In this document: positions 1-13,086 of the stretch, piece after piece
How the letters are laid out: each line of letters begins with the position of its first letter
How positions within the stretch are numbered: position 1 is the first letter of the stretch
Origin: an uncultured Gemmatimonadales bacterium
Lineage (GTDB): Bacteria; Gemmatimonadota; Gemmatimonadetes; Longimicrobiales; Longimicrobiaceae
Assembly (NCBI GenBank): GCA_963716255.1
Contig: OY970303.1
Location: 7,767,217 to 7,791,216, forward strand
Length of the DNA stretch: 24,000 nucleotides
Direction of reading: 5' to 3'
Made by a program: the position numbers and the translations under genes
Notes under the pieces: model-generated
The model's database searches: none
What the model saw: only the letters and a program-made list of their open reading frames with translations
What the model was told of the DNA's origin: nothing

Positions 1-345
1 GTGGACGGCGTGCTCGACCTGCACGGCCGCGTGGTGCCGGTGCTCTCGCTGCGGCGGCGCTTCGGCCTCCCCGACCGACCGCTCCGCCCCGACGACGTGT
101 TCGTGGTCGCCACGGTCGCGGGGCGCGTGGTCGCGCTCCGCGCCGACGCCGCGCTCGGCATCGCCCGCGTGGACCCCGCCGGCGTGGTGCCCGCCGCACA
201 GGTGGTCGCGGCATCCGGGCACGTGGGCGGCGTGGCGCGGCTCCCGGACGGGCTCGCGCTGATCCACGACCTGCGCACCTTCCTTTCCGGGGCCGAGGCC
301 GCCGGGGTGGACGCGGCGCTGGCCGCCGCGGAGCGGGGCGCGTGA
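1..345 (+). CDS. cheW: CheW-like coupling protein, C-terminal part (5' end lies outside the window)
   Basis: The frame is open from the window edge. It shows CheW-domain sequence (VPVLSLRRRFGL, VVALRADAALGIARV, GVARLPDGLALIHDL). The stop TGA at 343-345 overlaps the next gene's GTG start (GTGA). Confidence 0.8.
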   Translation: MDGVLDLHGRVVPVLSLRRRFGLPDRPLRPDDVFVVATVAGRVVALRADAALGIARVDPAGVVPAAQVVAASGHVGGVARLPDGLALIHDLRTFLSGAEAAGVDAALAAAERGA

Positions 346-1715
346 GGCCGGCGGCGGTCGCCGAGGTGCTGCGCCTGGCCGGAGAGCGCGCGGGGCTGGT
401 CTTTTCCGCCGGGCAGGCGGAGCTCGCGGCGGCCGGGGTGCGGCGCGCCATGCAGCGCGCGGGGGTGCACGACCCGGCGGACTTCCTGGGGCTGGCCGCG
501 GCGGGGACGGGCGCGTGGGAGGTGCTGCTGGAGGAGCTGTCCGTGGGGGAAACGTACTTCTTCCGCGAGCCGGACCAGCTCGCCTTCATCCGCGACACCG
601 TGCTCCCGGAGCTCGCCGCGCGCGGCGGGCCGGCGGGGGTGCGCGCCTGGAGCGCCGCCTGCGCCACCGGCGAGGAAGCGTACACCCTCGCCATGCTGCT
701 GGGCGACGCCGGGTGCCCCGCCTTCCGCGTGCTGGGCACCGACGTGGTGCGCAGCCGGCTGGACGCCGCCGGGCGCGGCTCGTATCGCCGCTGGTCGCTG
801 CGCGGCGTCCCGGACGCCGCGGCCGAGCGCTGGTTCGGGCGCGAGGGCGACCGCTTCCGGGTGCGCGACGAGGTGCGGGCTGCGGTCGGTTTCGCCCCGC
901 TCAACCTGGCCGACCCGCGCCGGGCGTACGTCGCCGCGGGCGCCTGGGGGATGGACCTGGTCCTTTGCCGCAACGTCCTCATCTACCTGGACGACGCCAC
1001 CACCCGCCACGTGGCCACGCGCCTGATGGACGCGCTCGCCCCCGGCGGATGGCTCTTCCTGGGCGCCTCCGATCCGCCGCTCGCCGGGCTGGTCCCCTGC
1101 GAGGTGGTGACGACCGGCGGCGGCATCGCCTACCGCAGGCCCGCGCGCCCCGCGGCTCCGGCCCCCGCTTCCGCGCCGTCCGCCCGGTCCCCCGCCGGGG
1201 CGCCCCCGCGCGCCGCCGCGCCGCCCCTCGCCGCGACCCCGGCCGACCCCCCGCCGACGGCGTCCGCGCCCGCGGCGCCCGCTGCCCCCACCGCGCCCGC
1301 CGAGCCCGATGCCGACGAGGCCGCCGCGCGGGTGCGCGCCCTCGCCGACCGCGGCGAGCTGGACGAGGCAGCGTCCGCGTGCGCCGCGGCGCTGCGCGGG
1401 CACCGCGACTCCCCCGAGCTGCTGGTGCTCCACTCCACGCTCCTCTTCACCGCCCGCCGCTTCGCCGAAGCCGCCGCCGCGGCGCGGCGCGCGCTCTATC
1501 TGGACCGCGGCTGCGCCGTCGCGCACCTGGCGCTGGGCAGCGCGGCGGCGCGCTCGGGCGACGCCGCGGTGGCCCGACGCGCCCTGCGCAACGCCGCCGA
1601 CCTCCTGCGCTCCCATCCCGCCGGGGAGGTGGTCCCCGCCTCCGGCGGCGAGGCCGCGGCGCGGCTCCTCGCCGTCGCCGAGGCGCAGCTCCAAGTACTC
1701 GGGGAGGTGGCGTGA
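342..1715 (+). CDS. cheR: Chemotaxis protein methyltransferase CheR with C-terminal TPR-like domain
   Basis: 457-aa ORF with CheR SAM-methyltransferase motifs (GETYFFREPDQLAFI, RAWSAACATGEEAYTLAMLL, DLVLCRNVLIYL). A roughly 70-aa Pro/Ala-rich linker is followed by helical TPR-like repeats. There are 4-nt overlaps with both flanking genes. Confidence 0.9.
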   Translation: MRPAAVAEVLRLAGERAGLVFSAGQAELAAAGVRRAMQRAGVHDPADFLGLAAAGTGAWEVLLEELSVGETYFFREPDQLAFIRDTVLPELAARGGPAGVRAWSAACATGEEAYTLAMLLGDAGCPAFRVLGTDVVRSRLDAAGRGSYRRWSLRGVPDAAAERWFGREGDRFRVRDEVRAAVGFAPLNLADPRRAYVAAGAWGMDLVLCRNVLIYLDDATTRHVATRLMDALAPGGWLFLGASDPPLAGLVPCEVVTTGGGIAYRRPARPAAPAPASAPSARSPAGAPPRAAAPPLAATPADPPPTASAPAAPAAPTAPAEPDADEAAARVRALADRGELDEAASACAAALRGHRDSPELLVLHSTLLFTARRFAEAAAAARRALYLDRGCAVAHLALGSAAARSGDAAVARRALRNAADLLRSHPAGEVVPASGGEAAARLLAVAEAQLQVLGEVA

Positions 1716-2299
1716 CGCCGCCGCGCCGCGCCCCGGCGGTCGACCTGGCGGAGGCCCGGCGGCGGGTGGAGGAGGCCGGGCACGCGCTGGCGCACGGCCC
1801 CGCGCCGTCCCCGGAGGGCGACCGCCGCGTGCTGGAGGAGCGCGCGCGGCTCCTCGCGCGCCCGGACGCGCCGGAAGCGTCCGGATACGAGCTGGAGCTG
1901 GTGACCTTTTCCCTCGCCGGCGAGCGCTTCGCCATCGACGCCGGGTACCTGCTGGCCGTCGCCCGCGTGGAGCGCGTGACCACCGTGCCGGGCACCGACC
2001 CCACCGTCTACGGGGTCATGGCGTGGCGCGGCGAGCTGCTCCTGATCCGCGACTACCGCACCCTCCTGGGGCTCGCCGCCGACCCGGACAGGGCGCCCGG
2101 GTGCGTGCTGGTGGCCGGCGAGGATCGCCCCGCCTTCGGCATACTGGCCGACGAGCCCGGGGAGTTCGTGCGCATCCCCGCCTCGCAGGTGCACCCGGCT
2201 CCCGGGAGGGAGGACGTGGGGCTGAACATCGTGCGCGGGGTGACCGGCGGGATGCTGATGGTGCTGGACGCCGTGGAGCTGTGGAACCTACATGGATGA
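1712..2299 (+). CDS. cheW: CheW-like coupling protein
   Basis: An in-frame GTG at 1712 overlaps the cheR stop (GTGA). CheW domain sequence is present (LELVTFSLAGERFAIDAGYLLAV, VYGVMAWRGELLLIRD, GMLMVLDAVEL). The longer ORF from 515 lies out of frame inside cheR and is Arg/Pro-rich, so it was rejected. The exact start is uncertain. Confidence 0.82.
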   Translation: MTPPRRAPAVDLAEARRRVEEAGHALAHGPAPSPEGDRRVLEERARLLARPDAPEASGYELELVTFSLAGERFAIDAGYLLAVARVERVTTVPGTDPTVYGVMAWRGELLLIRDYRTLLGLAADPDRAPGCVLVAGEDRPAFGILADEPGEFVRIPASQVHPAPGREDVGLNIVRGVTGGMLMVLDAVELWNLHG

Positions 2300-2314
2300 C
2301 ACAAGGAGGAGCCG

Positions 2315-3793
2315 GTGCAGAAGACGGTGAGCCGCCGCATCGCGTCGGGCTTCGCGGTGGCGCTGGGGCTGATGCTGGTGGTGACGGCGGTGGCGGGGCT
2401 CGCACTGCACCAGGCCACCCGGGCGTACCAGGCCGCGCTGAAGCAGCAGCGGAACAACGAGATCCCCGCGCTGGAGACCCGGCTGGCGTACATGGAGGCG
2501 AACCTCAACTTCGTCCGCTACCTCCTGGCGCCCTCCGACAACTGGTCCCGGCGGCGCGAAACGGCGGTCGCGGGCGTCATGGCCCAGCTGGACACGCTGC
2601 GGCGCACCTCCCACAGCCCCGAGGCGCGCGAGCTCTGGCAGGACGCCATCGCGTCCATGTCGGACTGGAACGACGCCTCGCGCGATGCCATGGAAGCGGC
2701 GCGCAGCGGGAGCATGGCCGACGCGCTGCGCATCCGCGACACGCGCACCTTCCCCACCGGCACGGCGTTCATCCGGGCGGTGGATGACGGCCTGCAGGCG
2801 GAGCGCCGCGAGACCGACGACACCGTCAGGGCGGCCGAGAAGGCCGCACGCTGGACGATGTGGGGGCTCGCCGGCGCCGCGCTCCTCGCGCTGGTGGTGG
2901 GCGTCGCCTCGGCGCTGCGCCTGTACCGCGACGTGAGCGACCCGCTGCGCGAGTCCACCGGCGTGCTCGCCTCCAGCGCAAGCGAGATCCTCGCCGCCAC
3001 CCGGCAGCAGGCCGCCGGCGCCAGCCAGTCCATGGCCGCCGTGGCCGAGACCGCCGCCACCGTCGACCAGGTGGCCCAGACCGCCGAGCAGGCGGCGCAG
3101 CGGGCCCGCATGGTGGCCGAGTCGGCGCAGCGCACCGCCGAGATCGGCAAGACCGGGCGCCGCGCCGTGGAGGAGTCACAGGCCTCCATGGCCGGGGTGC
3201 GCGAGCAGGTGGAGTCCATCGCCGCCAGCATCCTCGCCCTCGCCGAGCAGGCCCAGGCCATCGGCGAGATCATCGCCACGGTGGACGATATCGCCGGGCA
3301 GACCAACCTGCTCGCCCTGAACGCCGCCATCGAGGCGTCGCGCGCCGGCGAGTACGGCCGCGGCTTCGCCGTGGTCGCGCAGGAGATCCGCAGCCTGGCG
3401 GAGCAGTCGCGGGGCGCCACCGTGCAGGTCCGCCAGCTCCTGGGCGAGATCCAGCGCGCCACCACCACCGCGGTGATGACCACCGAGGAGGGGACCAAGC
3501 AGGCCGCCGTGGGCGCGCGCCAGGTCGCCGAGGCCGGCGACACCATCCGCCTCCTCGCCGAGACCGCCTCCGACGCCGCGCAGGCCGCCGCGCAGATCGT
3601 GGCCTCCGCCGGGCAGCAGGCCTCGGGGATGGGGCAGATCCGCCAGGCCATGCGCGACATCCAGACGGCCACCCAGCAGAACCTGTCCGCCACCCAGCAG
3701 ACCGAGCGCGCCGCCCAGGACCTGAGCCGCATCGGCCTGTCGCTGATGGAGCTGGTGGGGACCGACCGCCGGGCGGGGCCGCGCCCGGGATGA
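2315..3793 (+). CDS. Methyl-accepting chemotaxis protein (two TM segments, ~150-aa periplasmic domain)
   Basis: The GTG start at 2315 follows AAGGAGGA (2303-2310). Hydrophobic segments are [19 protein letters not shown] and [19 protein letters not shown]. The conserved MCP hairpin-tip sequence is present ([40 protein letters not shown]). Confidence 0.92.
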
Positions 3794-5958
3794 GCCGCGG
3801 CTCGCTGGCCGCGCGGCTCCTGGCCGCGTTCCTGGAGGACCTGGACGAGCAGCTCCGCGCCATGGACGCCGACCTGCTCGCGCTGGAGGCGAACCCCGCC
3901 GACGGGGAGCGCCTCCGCTCGCTCTTCCGCGTCGCCCACACCGTCAAGGGCGCCGCGCGCGCCGCCTCCGTCCCCCTGGTGGAGGAGGCCTGCCACGCGC
4001 TGGAGGCGCGCCTGTCCGACCTCCGCGACGGCGCCCGCTCGCTGGACGCCGCCGCCTTCCGCGCGCTCTTCGCCGCCGCGGACGCCCTGCGCGAGGCCGG
4101 CGCCCGGCTGGCCGCGGGCGAGCCGCTGGAGGGCTCGCGCGTGGAGCGGCTGGCCGGGCTGCTGCGCGAGCACGGCCTCGCCTTCCCGGAGGAGGCGCCC
4201 GCCCCGGAGGCCGCGGCCGCCGAGCGGGCCAACGGCCGGGTGCGGGTGGAGGCGGAAAAGCTGGACGCGCTCCTCGCCTCCGCAGTGCAGCTGATGTCCT
4301 CGCGCGGACGCATCGCCGCGCGCGTGTCCCGGGCGGCCGCGCTCCGCGACTCGCTGGCGCGCGCCGAGTCCCGGCACCGGCGCATGGCGCGCACCGTCCG
4401 CGCCGCACTGGAGCACGCCGGCGCTCCCCCCGCCGTGGCCGAGGGGCTGGCCGCCGCCGGCGAGGAGCTGCGCCACGCCGCCCGCGAGGCCGCCCGCCTC
4501 GCGGCCGAGGCCGCCGCCGAGGCGCGGGAGCTGGGGCAGGTCACCGACGAGCTCACCGAGCGCGTCCGCCGCCTGCGCCTGCGCCCCTTCGCGGACGCCT
4601 GCGAGGCGCTCCCGCGCGTGGCCCGCGACGTGGCCGCGGCCGCGGGCCGGGAGGTGCGGCTGGTGGTGCGCGGCGGCGAGGTGCAGGCCGACCGCGGGGT
4701 GATCGAGGGGCTTCGCGAGGCGCTGCTGCACCTGGTGAGGAACGCCGTGGACCACGGCATCGAGCCGCCCGAGGAGCGGGAGGCGCGCGGCAAGCCCCGC
4801 GCGGGGACGCTCACGGTCTCCGCCGCGCTTCACCGCGAGCGCATGACCGTCACCGTGGAGGACGACGGCCGGGGGATCGACACCGGCGCCGTGCGCGCCG
4901 CGCTGGAGCGCCGCGGCCTCCCCGTCCCGGCCGACGAGCGCGAGCTGGCGCGGTCCCTCTTCGCCCCCGGGCTGAGCACCCGCACCGAGGCCACACGCAT
5001 CTCCGGGCGCGGCGTGGGGCTGGACGCCGTGCGCGCCGCCGCCGAGCGCGTCCGCGGCACGCTGGACGTCACCTGGACCACGGGCGCCGGGGCGACCTTC
5101 GTGCTGGAAACGCCGCTGGTGCTCGCCACGCTGCGCGCGCTGCTGGTGAGGGTGGGCGACCACCTGCTGGCGCTCCCCACCTCGGCCGTGGACGCCCTGG
5201 TCCGCATCCCCCCCGGGGCGGTGCACCGCGCCGACGGCCGCGACCTCGCCGTGCTGGACGACGTCCCCGTGCAGGTGGCCTCCCTCGCCCGCATCCTGGG
5301 CCCGCCGCTGCGCGAGGCCCGCGACCCCGGCGCGCCGCTGGTGGCCGCGCTGCTGCGCTCCGGCGGCCGCCGCTTCGCCGCGGTGGTCGACGAGCCCGTC
5401 GGCGAGCTGGAGGTGGTCGTGCGCCCCCTGGAGCGCCCCGAGGGCCCTCTCCCGCACCTCCTGGGCGCTGCCATCCTGGGCACCGGCGAGGTGGCGCTGG
5501 TGCTCAGCCCGGCCAGCCTGGTGGAGGCCGCCGGCGCCCTGGCCGGAGGAGAGCCGCTGGCCGGGACCGGGGCGGACGCCGCGCCCCCCGCCCGGCACCG
5601 CGTCCTGGTGGTGGACGACTCCATCACCACCCGCACCCTGGAGCAGAGCACCCTGGAGGCGGCCGGCTACGAAGTGGCGGTCGCCGTCGACGGCGAGGCC
5701 GCCTGGGCGCGGCTCCAGCAGGGGGGGATCGAGGTGGTGGTCACCGACGTGGAGATGCCGCGCATGGGCGGCATCGAGCTGTGCCAGGCGATCCGCGCCT
5801 CCGAGCGCTTCGCCTCGCTCCCCGTGGTCCTGGTGACCTCGCTGGACTCCGCAGAGCACCGGGCGCGCGGCCTGGAGGCCGGCGCCGACGCCTACGTCGG
5901 CAAGGCCGCCTTCGACCAGCAGGGGCTGCTCCAGATCATCCGCCAGCTGGTGGGGTGA
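3790..5958 (+). CDS. cheA: Hybrid chemotaxis histidine kinase CheA with C-terminal receiver domain
   Basis: The ATG at 3790 overlaps the mcp stop (ATGA). Domains seen are Hpt ([14 protein letters not shown]), an ATPase core ([23 protein letters not shown]), a CheW-like P5 domain ([17 protein letters not shown]) and a receiver ([25 protein letters not shown]). The product is 722 aa. Confidence 0.92.
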
Positions 5959-5966
5959 GGAGCCCG

Positions 5967-7022
5967 ATGATCCGCGTGCTCGTCGCCGAGGACTCCCGGG
6001 CGGAGCGCGCGCTCCTGGTGTCCATCCTGGAGAGCGATCCCGCCATCCGGGTGGTGGGCGAGGCCGCCGACGGCGCGCAGGCCGTGGAGATGACGCTGCG
6101 CCTCCGCCCGGACCTCGTCACCATGGACGTGCACATGCCTCTCCTGGACGGGCTGGAGGCCACCCGCGAGATCATGGTCCGCGCCCCCACGCCCATCGTG
6201 GTGGTCTCCTCCAGCGTCCGTCCCGACGACATCACCCTGTCGCTGCGCGCCACCGGGGCCGGGGCCCTCGCCGCGGTCGCCAAGCCCGAGGGCCCCGCCT
6301 CGCCCCGCTTCGAGGAGGACCGCGCCCAGCTCGTATCCATGGTCCGGGCCATGGCCGACGTCAAGGTGGTGCGCCGCTGGAGCGCCCGCCCCGAGGGCGG
6401 GGTTCCCCCGGCGCCCACGCCCGCCCCGCGGGCCCCCGTGCGCCTGGTCGCGGTCGCCGCCTCCACCGGCGGCCCCGTCGCCCTCCAGACCCTCCTGTCC
6501 GCGCTCCCCGCCTCGTTCCCGGTCCCCGTGCTGGTGGTGCAGCACATGTCCCGTGGCTTCGTGGAGGTGCTGGCGCGCTGGCTCGGCACCGCCACCGCCC
6601 TGCGCGTCAGGGTCGCCGTGGCGGGCGAGCGCCTAGTCCCCGGCACCGTGTACCTCGCCCCCGACGACCAGCACCTGGGCACGACCCCCGACGGCGCCGC
6701 CGTGGAGCTGTCCGCCGCCCCGCCGCTGGAAGGCTTCCGTCCGTCCGCGTCGCACCTGTTCCGCTCCGCCGCCGCCGCGTACGGCGAGTCGCTGCTGGCG
6801 GTGATCCTCACCGGCATGGGGAGCGACGGCGTGCGCGGCCTGCGCGCGGCGCGGGCCGCCGGGGCGCTGGTGCTGGCCCAGGACGAGGAGTCCAGCGTGA
6901 TCTACGGGATGCCGCGGGAAGCGGTGCAGGCGGGAGTCGTGGGGGCCGTGCTGCCGCTCGAGTCCATCGGACCGCGGCTGGCGAGTCTTGTTTCCGCGAG
7001 TGGGGTGGACGATTTGTTCTGA
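5967..7022 (+). CDS. cheB: Chemotaxis response regulator protein-glutamate methylesterase CheB
   Basis: The ATG at 5967 lies 8 nt after the cheA stop. It has an N-terminal receiver (IRVLVAEDS, LVTMDVHMP) and a methylesterase domain (AASTGGP, LVVQHM, GMGSDG, IYGMPREA). The product is 351 aa. Confidence 0.92.
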   Translation: MIRVLVAEDSRAERALLVSILESDPAIRVVGEAADGAQAVEMTLRLRPDLVTMDVHMPLLDGLEATREIMVRAPTPIVVVSSSVRPDDITLSLRATGAGALAAVAKPEGPASPRFEEDRAQLVSMVRAMADVKVVRRWSARPEGGVPPAPTPAPRAPVRLVAVAASTGGPVALQTLLSALPASFPVPVLVVQHMSRGFVEVLARWLGTATALRVRVAVAGERLVPGTVYLAPDDQHLGTTPDGAAVELSAAPPLEGFRPSASHLFRSAAAAYGESLLAVILTGMGSDGVRGLRAARAAGALVLAQDEESSVIYGMPREAVQAGVVGAVLPLESIGPRLASLVSASGVDDLF

Positions 7023-7032
7023 ACGGGGAAGG

Positions 7033-7176
7033 GAACTGACGGTTTTGGGCGTGCCCCCGGCTGGCGCCGGGGTCGGGCTTCGGCTCCGTAGGGCTGCAAA
7101 CAACGCAGCCCAACGGAGTCGAGCCCCGCGAAACGGCCCGCGGGTCTCGCCCCTTCGGGCCGGAATCCCTCACGCG
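7033..7176 (+). repeat. R1 multi-hairpin repeat, copy A, 5' body
   Basis: This aligns with 10084-10230, including an identical 44-nt block (7047-7090 = 10097-10140). Hairpins are CCCCGGC-TGGC-GCCGGGG (7055-7072), GGGCTGC-AAACAAC-GCAGCCC (7091-7111, nested in the CTCCGT/ACGGAG outer stem) and GAG-C-CCCGCG-AAACGGCC-CGCGGG-T-CTC (7121-7148). Confidence 0.9.
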
Positions 7177-7415
7177 GGGCTCGCGCTGGCGTCGGCTGGC
7201 CCCCCACCCGGCTCGCTTGAGGCTCGCCACCCTCCCCCGCAAGCGAGGGAGGGCTGACCGAAGGTCAGGCAGTTTGCCGTTGCGACCTGCGCCGGGAGGT
7301 CGGGGAAGGCTGCGCAGGAGGTGCGTTGTTCGAAGCCAGCGTGATCCCGCCCTCGCACGGAGCGTGAGCGAGTGCTCTGCGAGTCCCTTCGGGTTCCGCA
7401 CCGACGGAGCAGCCG
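7177..7415 (-). repeat. ~240-nt mosaic segment inserted inside R1 copy A (inverted relative to the related mosaic at 12941-13090)
   Basis: This segment is absent from R1 copy B, where body and tail are only about 14 nt apart. It contains the inverted R2 copy (7198-7253). It also has perfect small hairpins CTGACC-GAA-GGTCAG (7254-7268) and GACCT-GCGCCGGG-AGGTC (7285-7302). Weaker similarity to the reverse complement of 12941-13031 includes TTTGCCGTT vs TTTGTCGTT and ACGGAGC. Confidence 0.7.
7198..7253 (-). repeat. R2 repeat, copy A (inverted): hairpin plus conserved 29-nt box
   Basis: The reverse complement reads CCCTCCC-TCGCTTGCGG-GGGAGGG followed by TGGCGAGCCTCAAGCGAGCCGGGTGGGGGGCC. This box matches the one at 13056-13086 apart from one extra G, and it matches 10319-10349 closely. 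Confidence 0.88.
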
Positions 7416-7463
7416 CCCCCGGCCGACCCCAAACACCGGAGGCTGCCGAAGCACACCGTCGTT
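7416..7463 (+). repeat. R1 repeat, copy A, 3' tail
   Basis: CCCCCGGCCGACCCCAAACACCGGAGGCTGCCGAAGCACACCGTCGTT aligns with 10245-10290 (CCCCCGGCCAACTCAAACACCGGAGCCCGCCGGAGCACACGCTGTT). Confidence 0.75.
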
Positions 7464-7469
7464 CTCTCC

Positions 7470-8009
7470 CTACTCGGCGGCCTCCACCATCTCCAGCACC
7501 TCGCGGAGGGTGGTCTCTCCCCGGTCGCGCGCGTACCACTTCCGCACGTCCCGGTAGATCTCCTCCGGAGGTCGCGTGCCGGCGCTCTTTTCACGCAGCA
7601 CGAACTCCTGGAGCTCCGCGGGGCGCGGGCCCCAGCGGCCACGCGGGCGGAACTGCTCGTCGAGCAGGACGACGAGCGGGATGGAGCGGGCGGCGCCGGT
7701 CAGGTACGCGTCCATCAGCTCCGGGTTCTCGTCGCGCTTCACCACCCGCATCTCCAGCTGCGGCGCGGATCCGGCGAGCGCGGCGATCACCGGGACGGTG
7801 TTGGACGCGTCGCCGCACCAGTCCTCCGAGATCACCAGCAGCTTCCAGCTCCCCCCCGCCGCCGCCGCGCGCTCCAGCGCCCACCCGGGCACCCTCACCC
7901 CCCTCGCGACGCCCTCCCACAGGGCGCGGTTGGTCACCACCTCGTCCGCCATGTACGCGTCCCAGGTGAAGCCCCCGTCCCAGTACCCGCGGTAGTCCAG
8001 GTCCGCCAT
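7470..8009 (-). CDS. Thioredoxin-fold protein with single-Cys WCGD motif
   Basis: The 179-aa product runs from the ATG at 8009 (MADLDYRGYWDGG). A thioredoxin-like core is present (KLLVISEDWCGDASNTVPVIAALA, SIPLVVLLDEQF). The upstream part of the 237-aa ORF is Arg/Pro-rich and would run into the divergent gene's leader, so it was rejected. Confidence 0.78.
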   Translation of the reverse strand: MADLDYRGYWDGGFTWDAYMADEVVTNRALWEGVARGVRVPGWALERAAAAGGSWKLLVISEDWCGDASNTVPVIAALAGSAPQLEMRVVKRDENPELMDAYLTGAARSIPLVVLLDEQFRPRGRWGPRPAELQEFVLREKSAGTRPPEEIYRDVRKWYARDRGETTLREVLEMVEAAE

Positions 8010-8195
8010 TTCGGCTCCGCCAATCAGGTCGTGATCGTGCCGGCGCGCCCCCCGCGCCGCCAGTGCCCACGCCCCGTCCGCAAGCTGCGCACCCCGCCGA
8101 TCCGGACGGGGGCGGGCGTGGCTTTTGCATTCCCGCCCCGCTCGGCGCCCGAAGACCGGAGGGTCTTGGACCATCCACTTCAAACCAGACGGGAT

Positions 8196-9311
8196 ATGAT
8201 CACGAAACAGGACCTCGAGCGGCTGATGCAGCGGACGGACGGCGGGCGGCCCGTCCTCTCACTCTTCCTCGACATGTCGGTCAACTCCGACAACAAGCGC
8301 ACCCACAGCACCGTCTTCCTCAACCAGAAGCAGAGCCAGTTCGAGGAGCTGGACGGGAGCCAGGCCCCGGACGTAGGGGATGCATTCGACCGCGTGCGCG
8401 CATGGCTGGCCGACGGCTACGCCGAGGAGAACCGCGGCGTCGTCGTCTACACCGAGGTGGGAGGCGACTGGTTCGAGGCGCTCCAGTTCCCCGTCCCCGT
8501 GCAGAGCCGCGCGACCCTGAGCCCCCGCCCGCTGATCGCGCCGCTGGCGCAGGTCATCGGCAGCTACCACCACCACGGCGTGGTACTGCTGGACCGCGAG
8601 CACGTGCGCATCCTCAGCATCTACCTGGGCACCCTGCTGGACGAGTTCGAGGTGCACGGCGACCCGCTCCCCGTTCCCTCGCACGTGCAGGCCGGGGGAT
8701 ACTCGCAGGCCCGCTTCCAGCGCCGCAAGGCCGAGGAGATGCGGCATTTCTTCAAGGAGTTCGCCAAGGAGGTGGAGACCTTCGTGGGGCGCTACGGGCC
8801 CGACGACCTCATCATCCTGGGCACCGACGAGAACGTCGCCAATTTCCGCGAGTTCCTCCCCGAGCCGGTGCAGGCGATGGTCGTGTACACCGGCAACGCC
8901 TGGGTGGACGACAACACCAGCGACATCCTGGTCAAGATCCAGCCGCACCTGGAGGCGTACGAGGACCGCGAGCGGCAGGAAGTGGTGGAGCGCGTCCGCG
9001 ACCGCGTGGCCAACGACTACCTCGCCACCGCCGGCTTCCAGGGCACGCTCACCGCGGTGCAGGAGGGGAAGGTGGACACCCTGGTGCTCGCCCGCGACCA
9101 GAGCCAGGACGGCACCCGGTGCAAGACCTGCTCGTTCGTGTACGCACGCGGCATGGAGCGCTGCTCGTACTGCGGCTCCAGCGAGCTGGAGGAGGTCGAC
9201 GCCGTGGAGGAGCTGGTGCGCATGGCCGAGGGCCAGGGCGTGGAGATCGCCTTCACCGACCCGGGCCAGGTGGACGACCTCAAGGGAGTGGGGGCGCTGC
9301 TGCGCTTCTGA
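8196..9311 (+). CDS. Bacterial eRF1/aRF1-like protein (VLRF1/baeRF-type putative release factor / peptidyl-tRNA hydrolase)
   Basis: The 371-aa product runs from the ATG at 8196. The central region VPSHVQAGGYSQARFQRRKAEEMRHFFKEFAKEVETFV parallels the eRF1 GGQ-loop region ([33 protein letters not shown], from memory). The C-terminus EGQGVEIAFTDPGQVDDLKGVGALLRF parallels the eRF1/aRF1 C-terminal ...GFGGIGGILRY. A CKTC...CSYC insert lies at aa 309-326. Confidence 0.8.
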   Translation: MITKQDLERLMQRTDGGRPVLSLFLDMSVNSDNKRTHSTVFLNQKQSQFEELDGSQAPDVGDAFDRVRAWLADGYAEENRGVVVYTEVGGDWFEALQFPVPVQSRATLSPRPLIAPLAQVIGSYHHHGVVLLDREHVRILSIYLGTLLDEFEVHGDPLPVPSHVQAGGYSQARFQRRKAEEMRHFFKEFAKEVETFVGRYGPDDLIILGTDENVANFREFLPEPVQAMVVYTGNAWVDDNTSDILVKIQPHLEAYEDRERQEVVERVRDRVANDYLATAGFQGTLTAVQEGKVDTLVLARDQSQDGTRCKTCSFVYARGMERCSYCGSSELEEVDAVEELVRMAEGQGVEIAFTDPGQVDDLKGVGALLRF

Positions 9312-9354
9312 GGGCGTCCGGGACTCACCTTTCCCGAACGACCATTCCGCCCAC

Positions 9355-9387
9355 GGGGGCGCGGGCCATGCCCGCGCCTCCGTTTTT
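9355..9387 (+). terminator. Intrinsic terminator downstream of the eRF1-like gene
   Basis: GGGGGCGCGGGC-CAT-GCCCGCGCCTCC forms a 12-bp stem with one G-U pair. It is followed by G then TTTTT (9383-9387), and lies 44 nt after the stop codon. Confidence 0.7.
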
Positions 9388-9389
9388 GC

Positions 9390-9419
9390 TTGACATTCCT
9401 GCCTGCAGAACCGTACGTT
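9390..9419 (+). promoter_or_regulatory. Candidate sigma70-type promoter for the 9451 gene
   Basis: TTGACA (9390-9395), an 18-nt spacer, then TACGTT (9414-9419). This sits about 30 nt upstream of the ATG at 9451. The -10 element is weak and the promoter consensus for this taxon is unknown. Confidence 0.3.
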
Positions 9420-9450: not shown

Positions 9451-10077
9451 ATGGCTTCTCCCCAACTGGACGAGGGCGGGCGGAAGCGTCTGCGCGCCGA
9501 CCTGGAATCCCTGGACGGAGTGCGCACCGCCCTGCTCGACGGCTCCCCCCTGGCCGTGTACCTGGTCTGCGACCACGGCGAGCCCGCGCAGCTCGAGATG
9601 CTCGCAGGCGCCGTGCTCGCCCGCCACCGCCTGGACCGCAAGGGCGTCGCCGTCCACGTGTCCTTTCTGGCGGGCCCGCAGCCCGCGCGCCGCGTGCGAT
9701 TCCTCCACGCCCGGGTCGCGCGTCCCAGCGCCGGCCGCGCCGTCGCCTCCGTCGCCCTGGAGTGGAGCGGGACCGTCTACGAGAACGAGACGGACGGGGA
9801 GAGCGGCGAGCCCATCGAGCTGCGCCTGGCCGCGCTCGCCACGCTGCGCGGCATCGAAGCCGTCATCGGCGGCGCGCTGCACTTCAAGCTGGTGGGAATC
9901 CGGACGCTGCGCGCCTTCGACACCGACATGGTCGCCGTCCTCCTGCACACCGACCACGGCAACAGCCCGCTCATCGGCGCGTCGCTGGCGCGCGAGTCGG
10001 TCCACGAGTCGGCCGCCATCGCCGTGCTCAACGCTACCAATCGCCTGCTCGGGAATTATCTCGCCACCGGGGAGTGA
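9451..10077 (+). CDS. Hypothetical protein (208 aa), no recognised domain
   Basis: This is a clean ATG ORF with balanced, non-low-complexity composition and an alpha/beta-like pattern. It lies between a terminator/promoter pair and repeat R1. No family motif was recognised by eye. Confidence 0.65.
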   Translation: MASPQLDEGGRKRLRADLESLDGVRTALLDGSPLAVYLVCDHGEPAQLEMLAGAVLARHRLDRKGVAVHVSFLAGPQPARRVRFLHARVARPSAGRAVASVALEWSGTVYENETDGESGEPIELRLAALATLRGIEAVIGGALHFKLVGIRTLRAFDTDMVAVLLHTDHGNSPLIGASLARESVHESAAIAVLNATNRLLGNYLATGE

Positions 10078-10083
10078 CGGCAT

Positions 10084-10290
10084 GAACTGCGGGTTGGGGC
10101 GTGCCCCCGGCTGGCGCCGGGGTCGGGCTTCGGCTCCGTAGAGCAGCAAACAACGCTGCTCAACGGAGTCGAGCCCCGGCGGAAACAGCCCCGCCGGGTC
10201 TCGCCCCTTCGGGCCGAAATCCCTCACGCGACGGCACGCCCCCTCCCCCGGCCAACTCAAACACCGGAGCCCGCCGGAGCACACGCTGTT
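10084..10290 (+). repeat. R1 multi-hairpin repeat, copy B (uninterrupted body plus tail)
   Basis: The body (10084-10230) aligns with 7033-7176 and the tail (10245-10290) aligns with 7416-7463. Hairpins are CCCCGGC-TGGC-GCCGGGG (10105-10122), GAGCAGC-AAACAAC-GCTGCTC (10141-10161) and GAG-C-CCCGGCGG-AAACAGCC-CCGCCGGG-T-CTC (10171-10202). Confidence 0.9.
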
Positions 10291-10294
10291 GGCC

Positions 10295-10349
10295 CCCTCT
10301 CCCAGAATTGGGAGAGGGTGGTGTGCCTCAAGCGAGCCGGGTGAGGGCC
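10295..10349 (+). repeat. R2 repeat, copy B
   Basis: CCCTCTCCC-AGAATT-GGGAGAGGG (10295-10318) is followed by TGGTGTGCCTCAAGCGAGCCGGGTGAGGGCC. After that comes a second CCGGGTGAGGG unit (10351-10361). Confidence 0.88.
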
Positions 10350-10391
10350 GCCGGGTGAGGGGCTTGCGCGTAAGGCACGGGCAGAAAAGAG

Positions 10392-13031: not shown

Positions 13032-13086
13032 CCCTCCCCCAGAATTGGGGGAGGGTGGCGAGCCTCAAGCGAGCCGGGTGGGGGCC
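13032..13086 (+). repeat. R2 repeat, copy C
   Basis: CCCTCCCCC-AGAATT-GGGGGAGGG (13032-13055) is followed by TGGCGAGCCTCAAGCGAGCCGGGTGGGGGCC. Confidence 0.88.

Follow-up and report, generated by a model that had tools for sequence, protein, structure and literature searches.

What does a relative of the archaeal and eukaryotic termination factors aRF1 and eRF1 do in a bacterium, and does it cut peptidyl-tRNA or park on the ribosome? This question is raised by one gene in a 24,000-nt stretch of DNA (the window, hereafter) from an uncultured Gemmatimonadales bacterium, a soil member of the Longimicrobiaceae (GenBank assembly GCA_963716255.1, contig OY970303.1, positions 7,767,217 to 7,791,216). 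The open reading frame (ORF) at positions 8196-9311 of the window (+ strand) gives an uninterrupted translation of 371 amino acids (aa). As indicated by the translation, Pfam, NCBIfam, the homologues, an AlphaFold2 model and Foldseek, this coding sequence specifies a member of the aeRF1 superfamily that belongs to Pfam baeRF_family10 (family 10) and is related to Balon, a ribosome hibernation factor. A sequence-only reading of the window, in which the ORF, a GGYSQ loop (8694-8708) and a CKTC-x10-CSYC motif (9120-9173) were all correctly positioned, proposed a peptidyl-tRNA hydrolase. We report here that the loop carries, by alignment, an aromatic residue in place of the catalytic glutamine, that the gene is preceded by a predicted sigma-54 promoter and followed by a conserved partner gene, p208, and that the protein may rather occupy the ribosomal A site of idle ribosomes.

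The match to the family lies well beyond chance. PF18854 (baeRF_family10) is the top Pfam model, with 90.8 bits against a cut-off of 27.1 (E 1.3e-25, aa 112-248), followed by baeRF family 2 (52.1 bits), acVLRF1 (37.5 bits, third-best) and weaker matches to baeRF families 3 and 5 and to eRF1_2 (18.6 bits). The eRF1_3 model aligns to aa 260-371 with 25.7 bits against a cut-off of 25.8, in line with the likeness to eRF1 domain 3 noticed earlier, and the Pfam scan gave no match to eRF1_1. The search for homologues returned 774 proteins at E<=1e-5, the best 120 of which are full-length orthologues (62-92% identity) from Longimicrobiaceae/Gemmatimonadota metagenomes; the nearest genome locus, at 92% identity, lies in a Longimicrobiaceae metagenome-assembled genome. 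A diverse set of 129 relatives sharing at most 50% identity was retained, all of which (129/129) match baeRF_family10, and conservation was counted over 130 representatives. NCBIfam yielded sub-threshold matches only, the best three being ribosome hibernation factor families, together with the aRF1 model TIGR03676 (56.3 bits against a cut-off of 234.7, covering aa 114-355 only) and acVLRF1 (23.3 against 125). The description as a full-length eRF1 thus stands for the three-domain architecture and fails for the N domain, to which neither eRF1_1 nor TIGR03676 extends.

Searches of the PDB agree with this assignment. With the single sequence (phmmer), the best match is the Balon homologue Msmeg1130 (1e-12), then the haloarchaeal aRF1 4af1 (4.4e-10), and Pelota is weak (E 0.14). 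The profile of the 129 relatives recovers Msmeg1130 (2.1e-44), aRF1 (1.1e-37) and Rv2629 (1.5e-28), followed by eRF1 (~1e-21), the Balon of P. urativorans (9e-17) and Pelota (7.5e-16). Msmeg1130, scored as residues 12-375 rebuilt from the profile alignment, reaches 124.6 bits on the baeRF_family10 model, so that the family already has an experimentally characterised member. The belief that such bacterial families lack experimental characterisation is therefore outdated, since Balon, Msmeg1130 and Rv2629 have been solved on ribosomes (PMC10901736). Some public orthologue records bear the names 'VLRF1 family aeRF1-type release factor' or 'Vms1/Ankzf1 family peptidyl-tRNA hydrolase', which the profile scores obtained here do not support.

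The AlphaFold2 model, computed from the 129-sequence alignment, has a mean predicted local distance difference test score (pLDDT) of 95.4 and a predicted template modelling score of 0.90, the GG loop being its sole less certain part (block mean pLDDT 65). In Foldseek against the PDB, ribosome-bound Msmeg1130 comes first, with a template modelling (TM) score of 0.85 and a root-mean-square deviation (rmsd) of 3.0 Å over the whole chain. Rv2629 (0.74) and P. urativorans Balon (0.71-0.73) are also recovered, whereas aRF1/eRF1 chains reach ~0.5, and Vms1 structures are absent from the top 50 matches. The protein does not qualify as a Pelota/Dom34, a type marked by an Sm-like N-terminal domain, as its structural matches to Pelota/Dom34 are weak (TM 0.25-0.45). 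Together with Pfam and the profile searches, these matches confirm the membership of the eRF1/Pelota/Vms1 superfamily, among the baeRF families, that had been suspected from the sequence. Identity to the Balon homologues is 16-21% in structure-based alignments, and all three domains of the model match Msmeg1130/aRF1. Since the TM score is 0.85 to Msmeg1130 and ~0.5 to aRF1/eRF1, the model predicts a Balon-type overall shape, small N domain included.

The N-terminal domain (aa 1-110; 8196-8525, +) is reduced and Balon-like, as eRF1_1 leaves it unmatched, TIGR03676 begins at aa 114 and the structural match to Msmeg1130 includes it. Its SLY(L) strand is conserved and common to aRF1. In aRF1 the NIKS element sits at the tip of a helix hairpin; the 371-aa protein has no NIKS-type element, and the tip between helix 2 and helix 3 (aa ~50-58) is variable, with 4-residue indels among orthologues, which makes stop-codon reading unlikely. 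The middle domain (RNase-H-fold, the 'catalytic' domain; aa 112-248; 8529-8939, +) is delimited by the baeRF_family10 alignment, and the C-terminal domain (Pelota/eRF1 domain 3; aa 260-371; 8973-9308, +) by eRF1_3. The latter ends with GVGALLRF, and its GxGAxLR[FY] motif lines up with the C-termini of aRF1, eRF1 and Balon, an ending already recognized in the sequence-only reading.

The GGYSQ loop, G167-G168-Y169-S170-Q171 (8694-8708, +), aligns without gaps to GGQSA or GGQSQ of aRF1. In the phmmer alignment to 4af1 (E 4.4e-10), which bears out the earlier comparison with the eRF1 catalytic loop, GGySqaRFqRR faces GGqSaqRFaRl within a stretch running from 'vpshvqa' to 'FfkefA' here and from 'vpgkqrk' to 'FyqevA' in aRF1. 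Since the surroundings of the GG pair are gapless in both single-sequence and profile alignments, Tyr169 falls where aRF1 has its catalytic Gln, and Gln171 lies two residues further. The same register is seen when GGQSAQRF (4af1) and GGQSQRRY (3agk) are set against GGYSQARF here and GGWSQARY in the family consensus; the gapless family-profile loop with aRF1/eRF1 reads vPG+hKxGG(Q/W)SQxR[FY]xR. The Gln of GGQ is thus replaced by Tyr in the window protein and by Trp in most relatives.

Constraint on this loop is uneven. Among the 130 representatives, G167 is conserved in 85% and G168 in 92%, residue 169 is aromatic in 78% (W 86, F 9, Y 7) and S/A170 is found in 77%, whereas Q171 is retained in only 53% (E 20, A 16, others). 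Further on, R173 (65%), Q175 (67%) and R176 (85%) follow, and a true GGQ occurs in none (0/130). Overall, the GG pair, the aromatic residue, R176 and four zinc ligands are 78-99% conserved. The 'well-conserved glutamine' of family 10 (PMC6514570) thus measures 53%. The expectation that the Gln of GGYSQ would be conserved holds for 92% of the close orthologues (109 Q, 8 H, 1 A; n = 118, all full-length and otherwise well conserved) and does not extend to the family, as parsimony on neighbour-joining trees requires at least 20 Q/non-Q changes at position 171 in the 130 representatives, and at least 7 in the 118 close orthologues, with Gln171 inferred to be ancestral. Loop length is identical in 76/130 representatives (58%), and the profile consensus loop has the length of that of aRF1; the clade of the window protein carries 2-3 extra residues before GG. 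A strict GG and aromatic residue with a relaxed Gln is, judged from these alignments, unlike the essential catalytic Gln of RF1/RF2/eRF1.

The Cys4 zinc ribbon of the C-terminal domain, C309-K-T-C312 x10 C323-S-Y-C326 (aa 309-326; 9120-9173, +), is strongly conserved: Cys occupies the four ligand positions in 129, 128, 128 and 121 of the 130 representatives (93-99%). The fourth ligand is Asp (CPYDG) in 93/120 close orthologues, while the window protein keeps Cys. Presented as an insert by the sequence-only reading, the motif is present but not novel, since it aligns with the C...CxxC of aRF1 4af1, and with the Cys-less Msmeg1130 segment GTVGADGSLYADGEIAPHSH. By this alignment, it is the ancestral aRF1 zinc ribbon (PMC6514570), inherited from aRF1, rather than a new insert. 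In Balon, a Cys-less beta-hairpin that contacts EF-Tu occupies the zinc-ribbon site (PMC10901736).

Upstream of the family-10 gene, a gap of 186 nt holds GGCGTGGCTTTTGCA (8115-8129, +; 67 nt 5' of the ATG), the only match to GGC-N7-TTGCA in the 24-kb window. The element is present in 11/11 orthologous loci, 77-91 nt 5' of the ATG, with the consensus nGGCAAGnnnnTTGCA, and GGC-N7-TTGC is invariant across eight aligned upstream regions that are otherwise ~49% identical. The sigma-54 consensus is TGGCACG-N4-TTGCW, and the spacing of the element equals the textbook spacing. By spacing and sequence, this conserved element is therefore a predicted sigma-54 -24/-12 promoter. Activators of sigma-54 exist in the lineage, and the gene for one is located 3.2 kb upstream at an orthologous locus. 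Outside the clade, GGC-N7-TTGC occurs at most 200 nt upstream in 8/73 loci against 1.9 expected, mainly in Acidobacteriota and Rokubacteria/Methylomirabilota (L047, L057, L059, L069, L072, L078, L083), several of the elements reading GGCAC; this suggests that sigma-54 control may recur outside Longimicrobiaceae. Closer to the start, a (C)TTCAAC-like motif is found ~15-25 nt 5' of the ATG in most orthologous loci (window 8170-8195; L001-L010, L086, L087), and no clear Shine-Dalgarno sequence is seen at the expected place upstream of the ATG in these orthologous loci.

Directly 3' of the baeRF10 gene lies p208 (9451-10077, +), which encodes a 208-aa orphan. It immediately follows the baeRF10 gene in 10/11 distinct loci, while the flanks on both sides change; this count includes two reverse look-ups begun from 39-41%-identical homologues. 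When the two neighbours singled out in the sequence-only reading are compared for co-occurrence, it is thus the 208-aa gene that is retained, the thioredoxin-fold gene being variable. The 190 homologues of p208 are unnamed except for 'hypothetical protein', none matches a Pfam domain, and all come from Longimicrobiaceae/Gemmatimonadetes where a source is given, to which the family is apparently restricted. In its AlphaFold2 model (pLDDT 88.7), the N-terminal domain is ferredoxin-like and the C-terminal one has the topology (beta-beta-beta-alpha)x2. Foldseek relates the latter to the leucine/isoleucine-binding regulatory domains of LeuA/citramalate synthase (LeuA E 1e-5; 3f6h_B, TMt 0.71, rmsd 3.1), matches to double-stranded-RNA-binding domains being weaker. 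A C-terminal helix, VLNATNRxLGNYL, is nearly invariant in the p208 family.

The two genes seem to be transcribed separately. An intrinsic-terminator-like hairpin of 14 pairs (12 G-C) with a T-run, recognized from sequence and alignment, stands 42 nt past the stop codon (9353-9388, +); both hairpin and T-run are kept in the window, L006, L007 and L001, and in L010 and L002 an inverted repeat of other sequence was seen by eye at the same place of the alignment. It is followed by a conserved sigma-70-type promoter for p208 (9390-9419, +), composed of TTGACA (9390-9395), an 18-nt spacer and TACGTT (9414-9419); TTGACA and TA.GTT are invariant in 6/6 aligned intergenic regions (TACGTT in five, TAGGTT in L001). 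A single operon of baeRF10 and p208 was considered and rejected, as this terminator and separate promoter stand between the genes in the window and five other genomes. The gap between the two genes is 11-15 nt in other genomes.

How would such a protein work? The reading we favour, to which we give an even chance, is that of an inducible, Balon-like, non-hydrolytic A-site factor. The gene would stay silent until turned on by a sigma-54 activator, and would be expressed under stress or starvation and not constitutively. Its product, a tRNA-shaped factor of three-domain aeRF1 fold from the same Pfam family, baeRF_family10, as Msmeg1130, would bind the ribosomal A site without the need for a stop codon, with the reduced N domain placed at the decoding centre and the Cys4 zinc-ribbon C domain in contact with EF-Tu. 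The middle-domain loop, GG-aromatic-S-x-x-R-x-x-R, would reach the peptidyl-transferase centre. Since the catalytic Gln is replaced family-wide by a bulky aromatic residue, we propose that the loop occupies or plugs this centre rather than hydrolysing peptidyl-tRNA, so that the ribosome would be held idle and protected as by Balon. The clade-specific 208-aa partner, with its LeuA-type ligand-binding fold, may tune the factor.

The comparison with Balon supports this reading in part. Structures place Msmeg1130 (PDB 8v9j/8v9l) and Rv2629 (8v9k) in the ribosomal A site, their recombinant forms were assayed in a green fluorescent protein reporter translation system, and in the P. urativorans Balon structure (8rd8) EF-Tu is bound alongside while peptidyl-tRNA is left unhydrolysed and the nascent chain is not released (PMC10901736). 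The 371-aa protein shares with them the three-domain aeRF1 fold and inter-domain arrangement, the lack of a NIKS-type N domain and of a canonical GGQ, the C-terminal GxGAxLR[FYW] and, in the case of Msmeg1130, Pfam family 10. It would even count as a 'Balon homologue' under the operational definition of a bacterial aeRF1 homologue of at least 300 aa (PMC10901736). Balon has a 'lasso' loop and a bL27 trap in place of the GGQ loop, and an HP motif that contacts the decoding centre (PMC10901736); of the GGQ of aRF1, the protein studied here lacks the Gln and keeps the GG. It differs from them by its conserved GG-aromatic-S-Q loop with aRF1-type flanks, by a Cys4 zinc ribbon instead of the Cys-less hairpin, and by the sigma-54-type promoter and clade-specific partner gene at its locus. 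From aRF1/eRF1, with which it has in common the zinc-ribbon insert of the C domain, the N-terminal SLY(L/I) strand and the C-terminal motif, it is distinguished by an N domain ~30 aa shorter and by a whole-protein TM score of ~0.5.

Several observations weigh against a hibernation role. The GG pair, the consensus loop of aRF1 length, the Gln at +2 (92% of close orthologues) and the zinc ribbon are kept here though lost in the solved Balons, and Burroughs and Aravind (2019; PMC6514570) read the GG loop, Gln and zinc ribbon as signs of catalysis. An aromatic side chain at the Gln position does not by itself exclude catalysis, since release-factor hydrolysis has been attributed to the backbone amide at that position (PMC6742477). 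The protein also falls far under the NCBIfam cut-offs of all three Balon families (NF052287/8/9), scoring 89.3 bits against 480 for MSMEG_1130, 83.8 against 320 for Rv2629 and 63.2 against 330 for AOC03_06830. Finally, clustering of the neighbours of 80 loci revealed no stress gene as a conserved neighbour, and phmmer with E. coli HPF and RaiA found no HPF/RaiA gene within ~6 kb in 85 loci, although such linkage is reported for other baeRF/Balon genes; this negative is weak, as the queries gave zero matches overall.

These points lead to the opposite reading, a stop-codon-independent peptidyl-tRNA hydrolase for stalled ribosomes, as put forward in the sequence-only reading and by Burroughs and Aravind. 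Here the GG loop would enter the peptidyl-transferase centre as in aRF1, the backbone amide of residue 169 and/or Gln171 would promote hydrolysis, the reduced N domain would permit action without a stop codon, and EF-Tu would deliver the factor. The 85-92% conservation of GG, a loop length shared by 76/130 representatives and equal to that of aRF1 in the profile alignment, and a Gln171 that is ancestral by parsimony and kept in 92% of close orthologues all suit such an enzyme, backbone-amide catalysis lessens the weight of the Gln side chain (PMC6742477), and sigma-54 control would fit an emergency rescue factor too. The 371-aa protein shows no categorical difference from family 10 of baeRF-1 (PF18854), of which it is a member and for which the loop Gln, the standard three-domain architecture and the zinc ribbon were highlighted; this family and GGxSQ loops, described for aVLRF-1/acVLRF-1, were explicitly regarded as potentially active, family 10 being singled out as possibly catalytic (Burroughs and Aravind, 2019; PMC6514570). 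Yet family 10 also includes the Cys-less, GG-less Msmeg1130 and archaeal members. Moreover, all families known to hydrolyse keep the Gln of GGQ almost without exception, whereas the position is aromatic in 78% here and never Gln; Gln171, lost independently at least 20 times, is missing in 47% of representatives, and H or A replaces it in intact close orthologues; the clade of the window protein has its 2-3 additional residues before GG; and the closest characterised relatives do not release the peptide (PMC10901736). We therefore hold a hydrolase to be possible but doubtful, and not the best-supported reading. A broader version of it, which we judge unlikely, is that the zinc-ribbon GG-aromatic-S-Q subgroup, spread over many bacterial phyla and Thermoplasmata, as a whole consists of active EF-Tu-delivered, stop-codon-independent peptidyl-tRNA hydrolases rather than hibernation factors, using backbone-amide or Gln+2 chemistry, with a sigma-54 switch and modulation by the LeuA-type-fold partner in Longimicrobiaceae. 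If so, the subgroup would be a living intermediate between aRF1 and Balon, and the fold of the partner would be an amino-acid-sensing one.

Two further enzymatic roles can be set against the same data. A Vms1/ANKZF1-like enzyme acting on 50S-bound peptidyl-tRNA in ribosome-associated quality control (RQC), for instance by cutting the tRNA 3' CCA end via a GxxQ-type loop, might be suspected from the VLRF1 or Vms1/Ankzf1 names of several orthologues at NCBI, from an acVLRF1 match above its Pfam cut-off (37.5 bits) and from the GGxSQ pattern common to Vms1/ANKZF1, acVLRF1 and aVLRF-1 (PMC6514570), which belong to the same superfamily. The fit with VLRF1/Vms1 asserted earlier is right for this pattern and goes no further: acVLRF1 scores far less than the 90.8 bits of family 10, is restricted to aa 129-219 and reaches 23.3 against 125 in NCBIfam; the architecture, an N domain with a zinc-ribbon Pelota domain, is unlike the VLRF1 type; and Balon and aRF1, not Vms1, dominate the top 50 folds. 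Members of acVLRF-1 have lost the N domain that binds stop codons and carry a short N-terminal extension instead, whereas the 371-aa protein retains its N domain. Neither the Pfam-annotated neighbours in five orthologous loci nor the ten ORFs scanned in the window were seen to include a gene for RqcH or another RQC factor, no neighbour having been specifically searched for. On this evidence a Vms1-like role is very improbable. That the protein is a genuine alternative class-I termination factor reading stop codons, a bacterial aRF1, is scarcely credible: the three-domain architecture, zinc ribbon and C-terminal motif of aRF1 are retained, with a profile E of 1.1e-37, but there is no eRF1_1 match, the NIKS-equivalent tip varies with indels even in close orthologues, TIGR03676 gives 56 against 234.7 bits with the N domain uncovered, GGQ is lacking, and baeRF-1 proteins never displaced RF1/RF2 (PMC6514570). 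Weighing all this, the non-hydrolytic A-site factor is the reading we retain.

The distribution of the family extends beyond bacteria. The peptide pattern GG[WY]SQ[AMK]R[YF]Q, searched in species-representative genomes, is found in at least 547 confirmed loci, and 23 of the 80 loci fetched are archaeal, mostly from Thermoplasmata (within L018-L075). The archaeal proteins are ~355-385 aa long and carry the same GGWSQ loop (e.g., L031:5986-7101 and L032:5950-7065). In the five that were scanned, family 10 is the best model (68-91 bits), with eRF1_2 and eRF1_3 also strong, so that the 'bacterial' baeRF_family10 is not confined to bacteria. The members in Thermoplasmata and other archaea may stem from the lineage that gave the gene to bacteria, or may have received it back from them. 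A separate, lineage-specific neighbourhood is seen in Actinomycetota, where an ArsA_ATPase gene with an ArsA_HSP20 domain precedes the family-10 gene in five loci (L034:4458-5942, L040, L045, L054, L080). A small unannotated protein is encoded between the two in L034, L054 and L080, and likewise in L026; SRPBCC (Polyketide_cyc2) genes are close by in 4/5 of these loci.

Around the window gene itself, the nearest upstream neighbour is a divergent Thioredoxin_9-family gene (7470-8009, -; Pfam E 1.5e-34). As it carries WCGD, with a single Cys, in place of CxxC, a classical disulfide reductase is unlikely. A thioredoxin-like gene is detected upstream by tblastn in L001, L002, L006, L007 and L010 as well as in the window, whereas Big_2 or SNase genes stand in for it in L003 and L086. 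It was rejected as a partner, being upstream in about half of the orthologous loci, replaced elsewhere and devoid of CxxC, and probably lies outside the system. A defence or conflict system was likewise rejected: PADLOC was null for the 371-aa protein and the thioredoxin-like neighbour and gave only a marginal Can1 match for p208 (E 0.0019). No neighbour is conserved family-wide: the 443 proteins encoded next to the gene in 80 loci, when clustered all against all, gave lineage-specific groups only. The surroundings in the window consist of housekeeping genes and a chemotaxis cluster (342-7022, +) with CheR, CheA with fused CheW and receiver domains (a 1032-aa ORF) and CheB, which is ordinary and unrelated. 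A structured RNA leader was rejected too, as no part of the window matches an Rfam family.

Composite intergenic repeats bracket the block formed by the Thioredoxin_9, baeRF10 and p208 genes (7040-7456, 10090-10350 and 13032-13086), with units of 89 nt at 93% identity, 36 nt at 97% and 40 nt at 80%, and a 55-nt module also present inverted at 7201-7253. Between the 52-nt core copies at 7075-7126 and 10125-10176, paired substitutions keep a hairpin (GGGCTGC...GCAGCCC versus GAGCAGC...GCTGCTC), and on the minus strand these copies read as terminator-like stems. They are probably elements resembling repetitive extragenic palindromes, with no exact copies in the 85 other loci.

Much of this was known: the literature and Pfam already cover the family (defined in 2019, partly characterised in 2024) together with its motifs and probable ribosomal target. 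The present analysis adds the measured weak constraint on the Gln, the register that sets an aromatic residue against the catalytic Gln, the sigma-54 promoter, the partner gene and the archaeal members, and the findings on the 371-aa protein leave the basic picture unchanged. Bacterial eRF1 homologues were predicted in 2019, and one branch was shown in 2024 to be ribosome hibernation factors (Balon). The gene studied here represents the least-derived branch, which combines the aRF1 zinc ribbon and GG loop with an aromatic residue in the place of the catalytic Gln. Whether it parks on ribosomes or cuts peptidyl-tRNA bears on the evolutionary passage from termination to hibernation factor, and the sigma-54 promoter and the partner of ligand-binding fold offer experimental handles on the inducing condition and the interaction partner.

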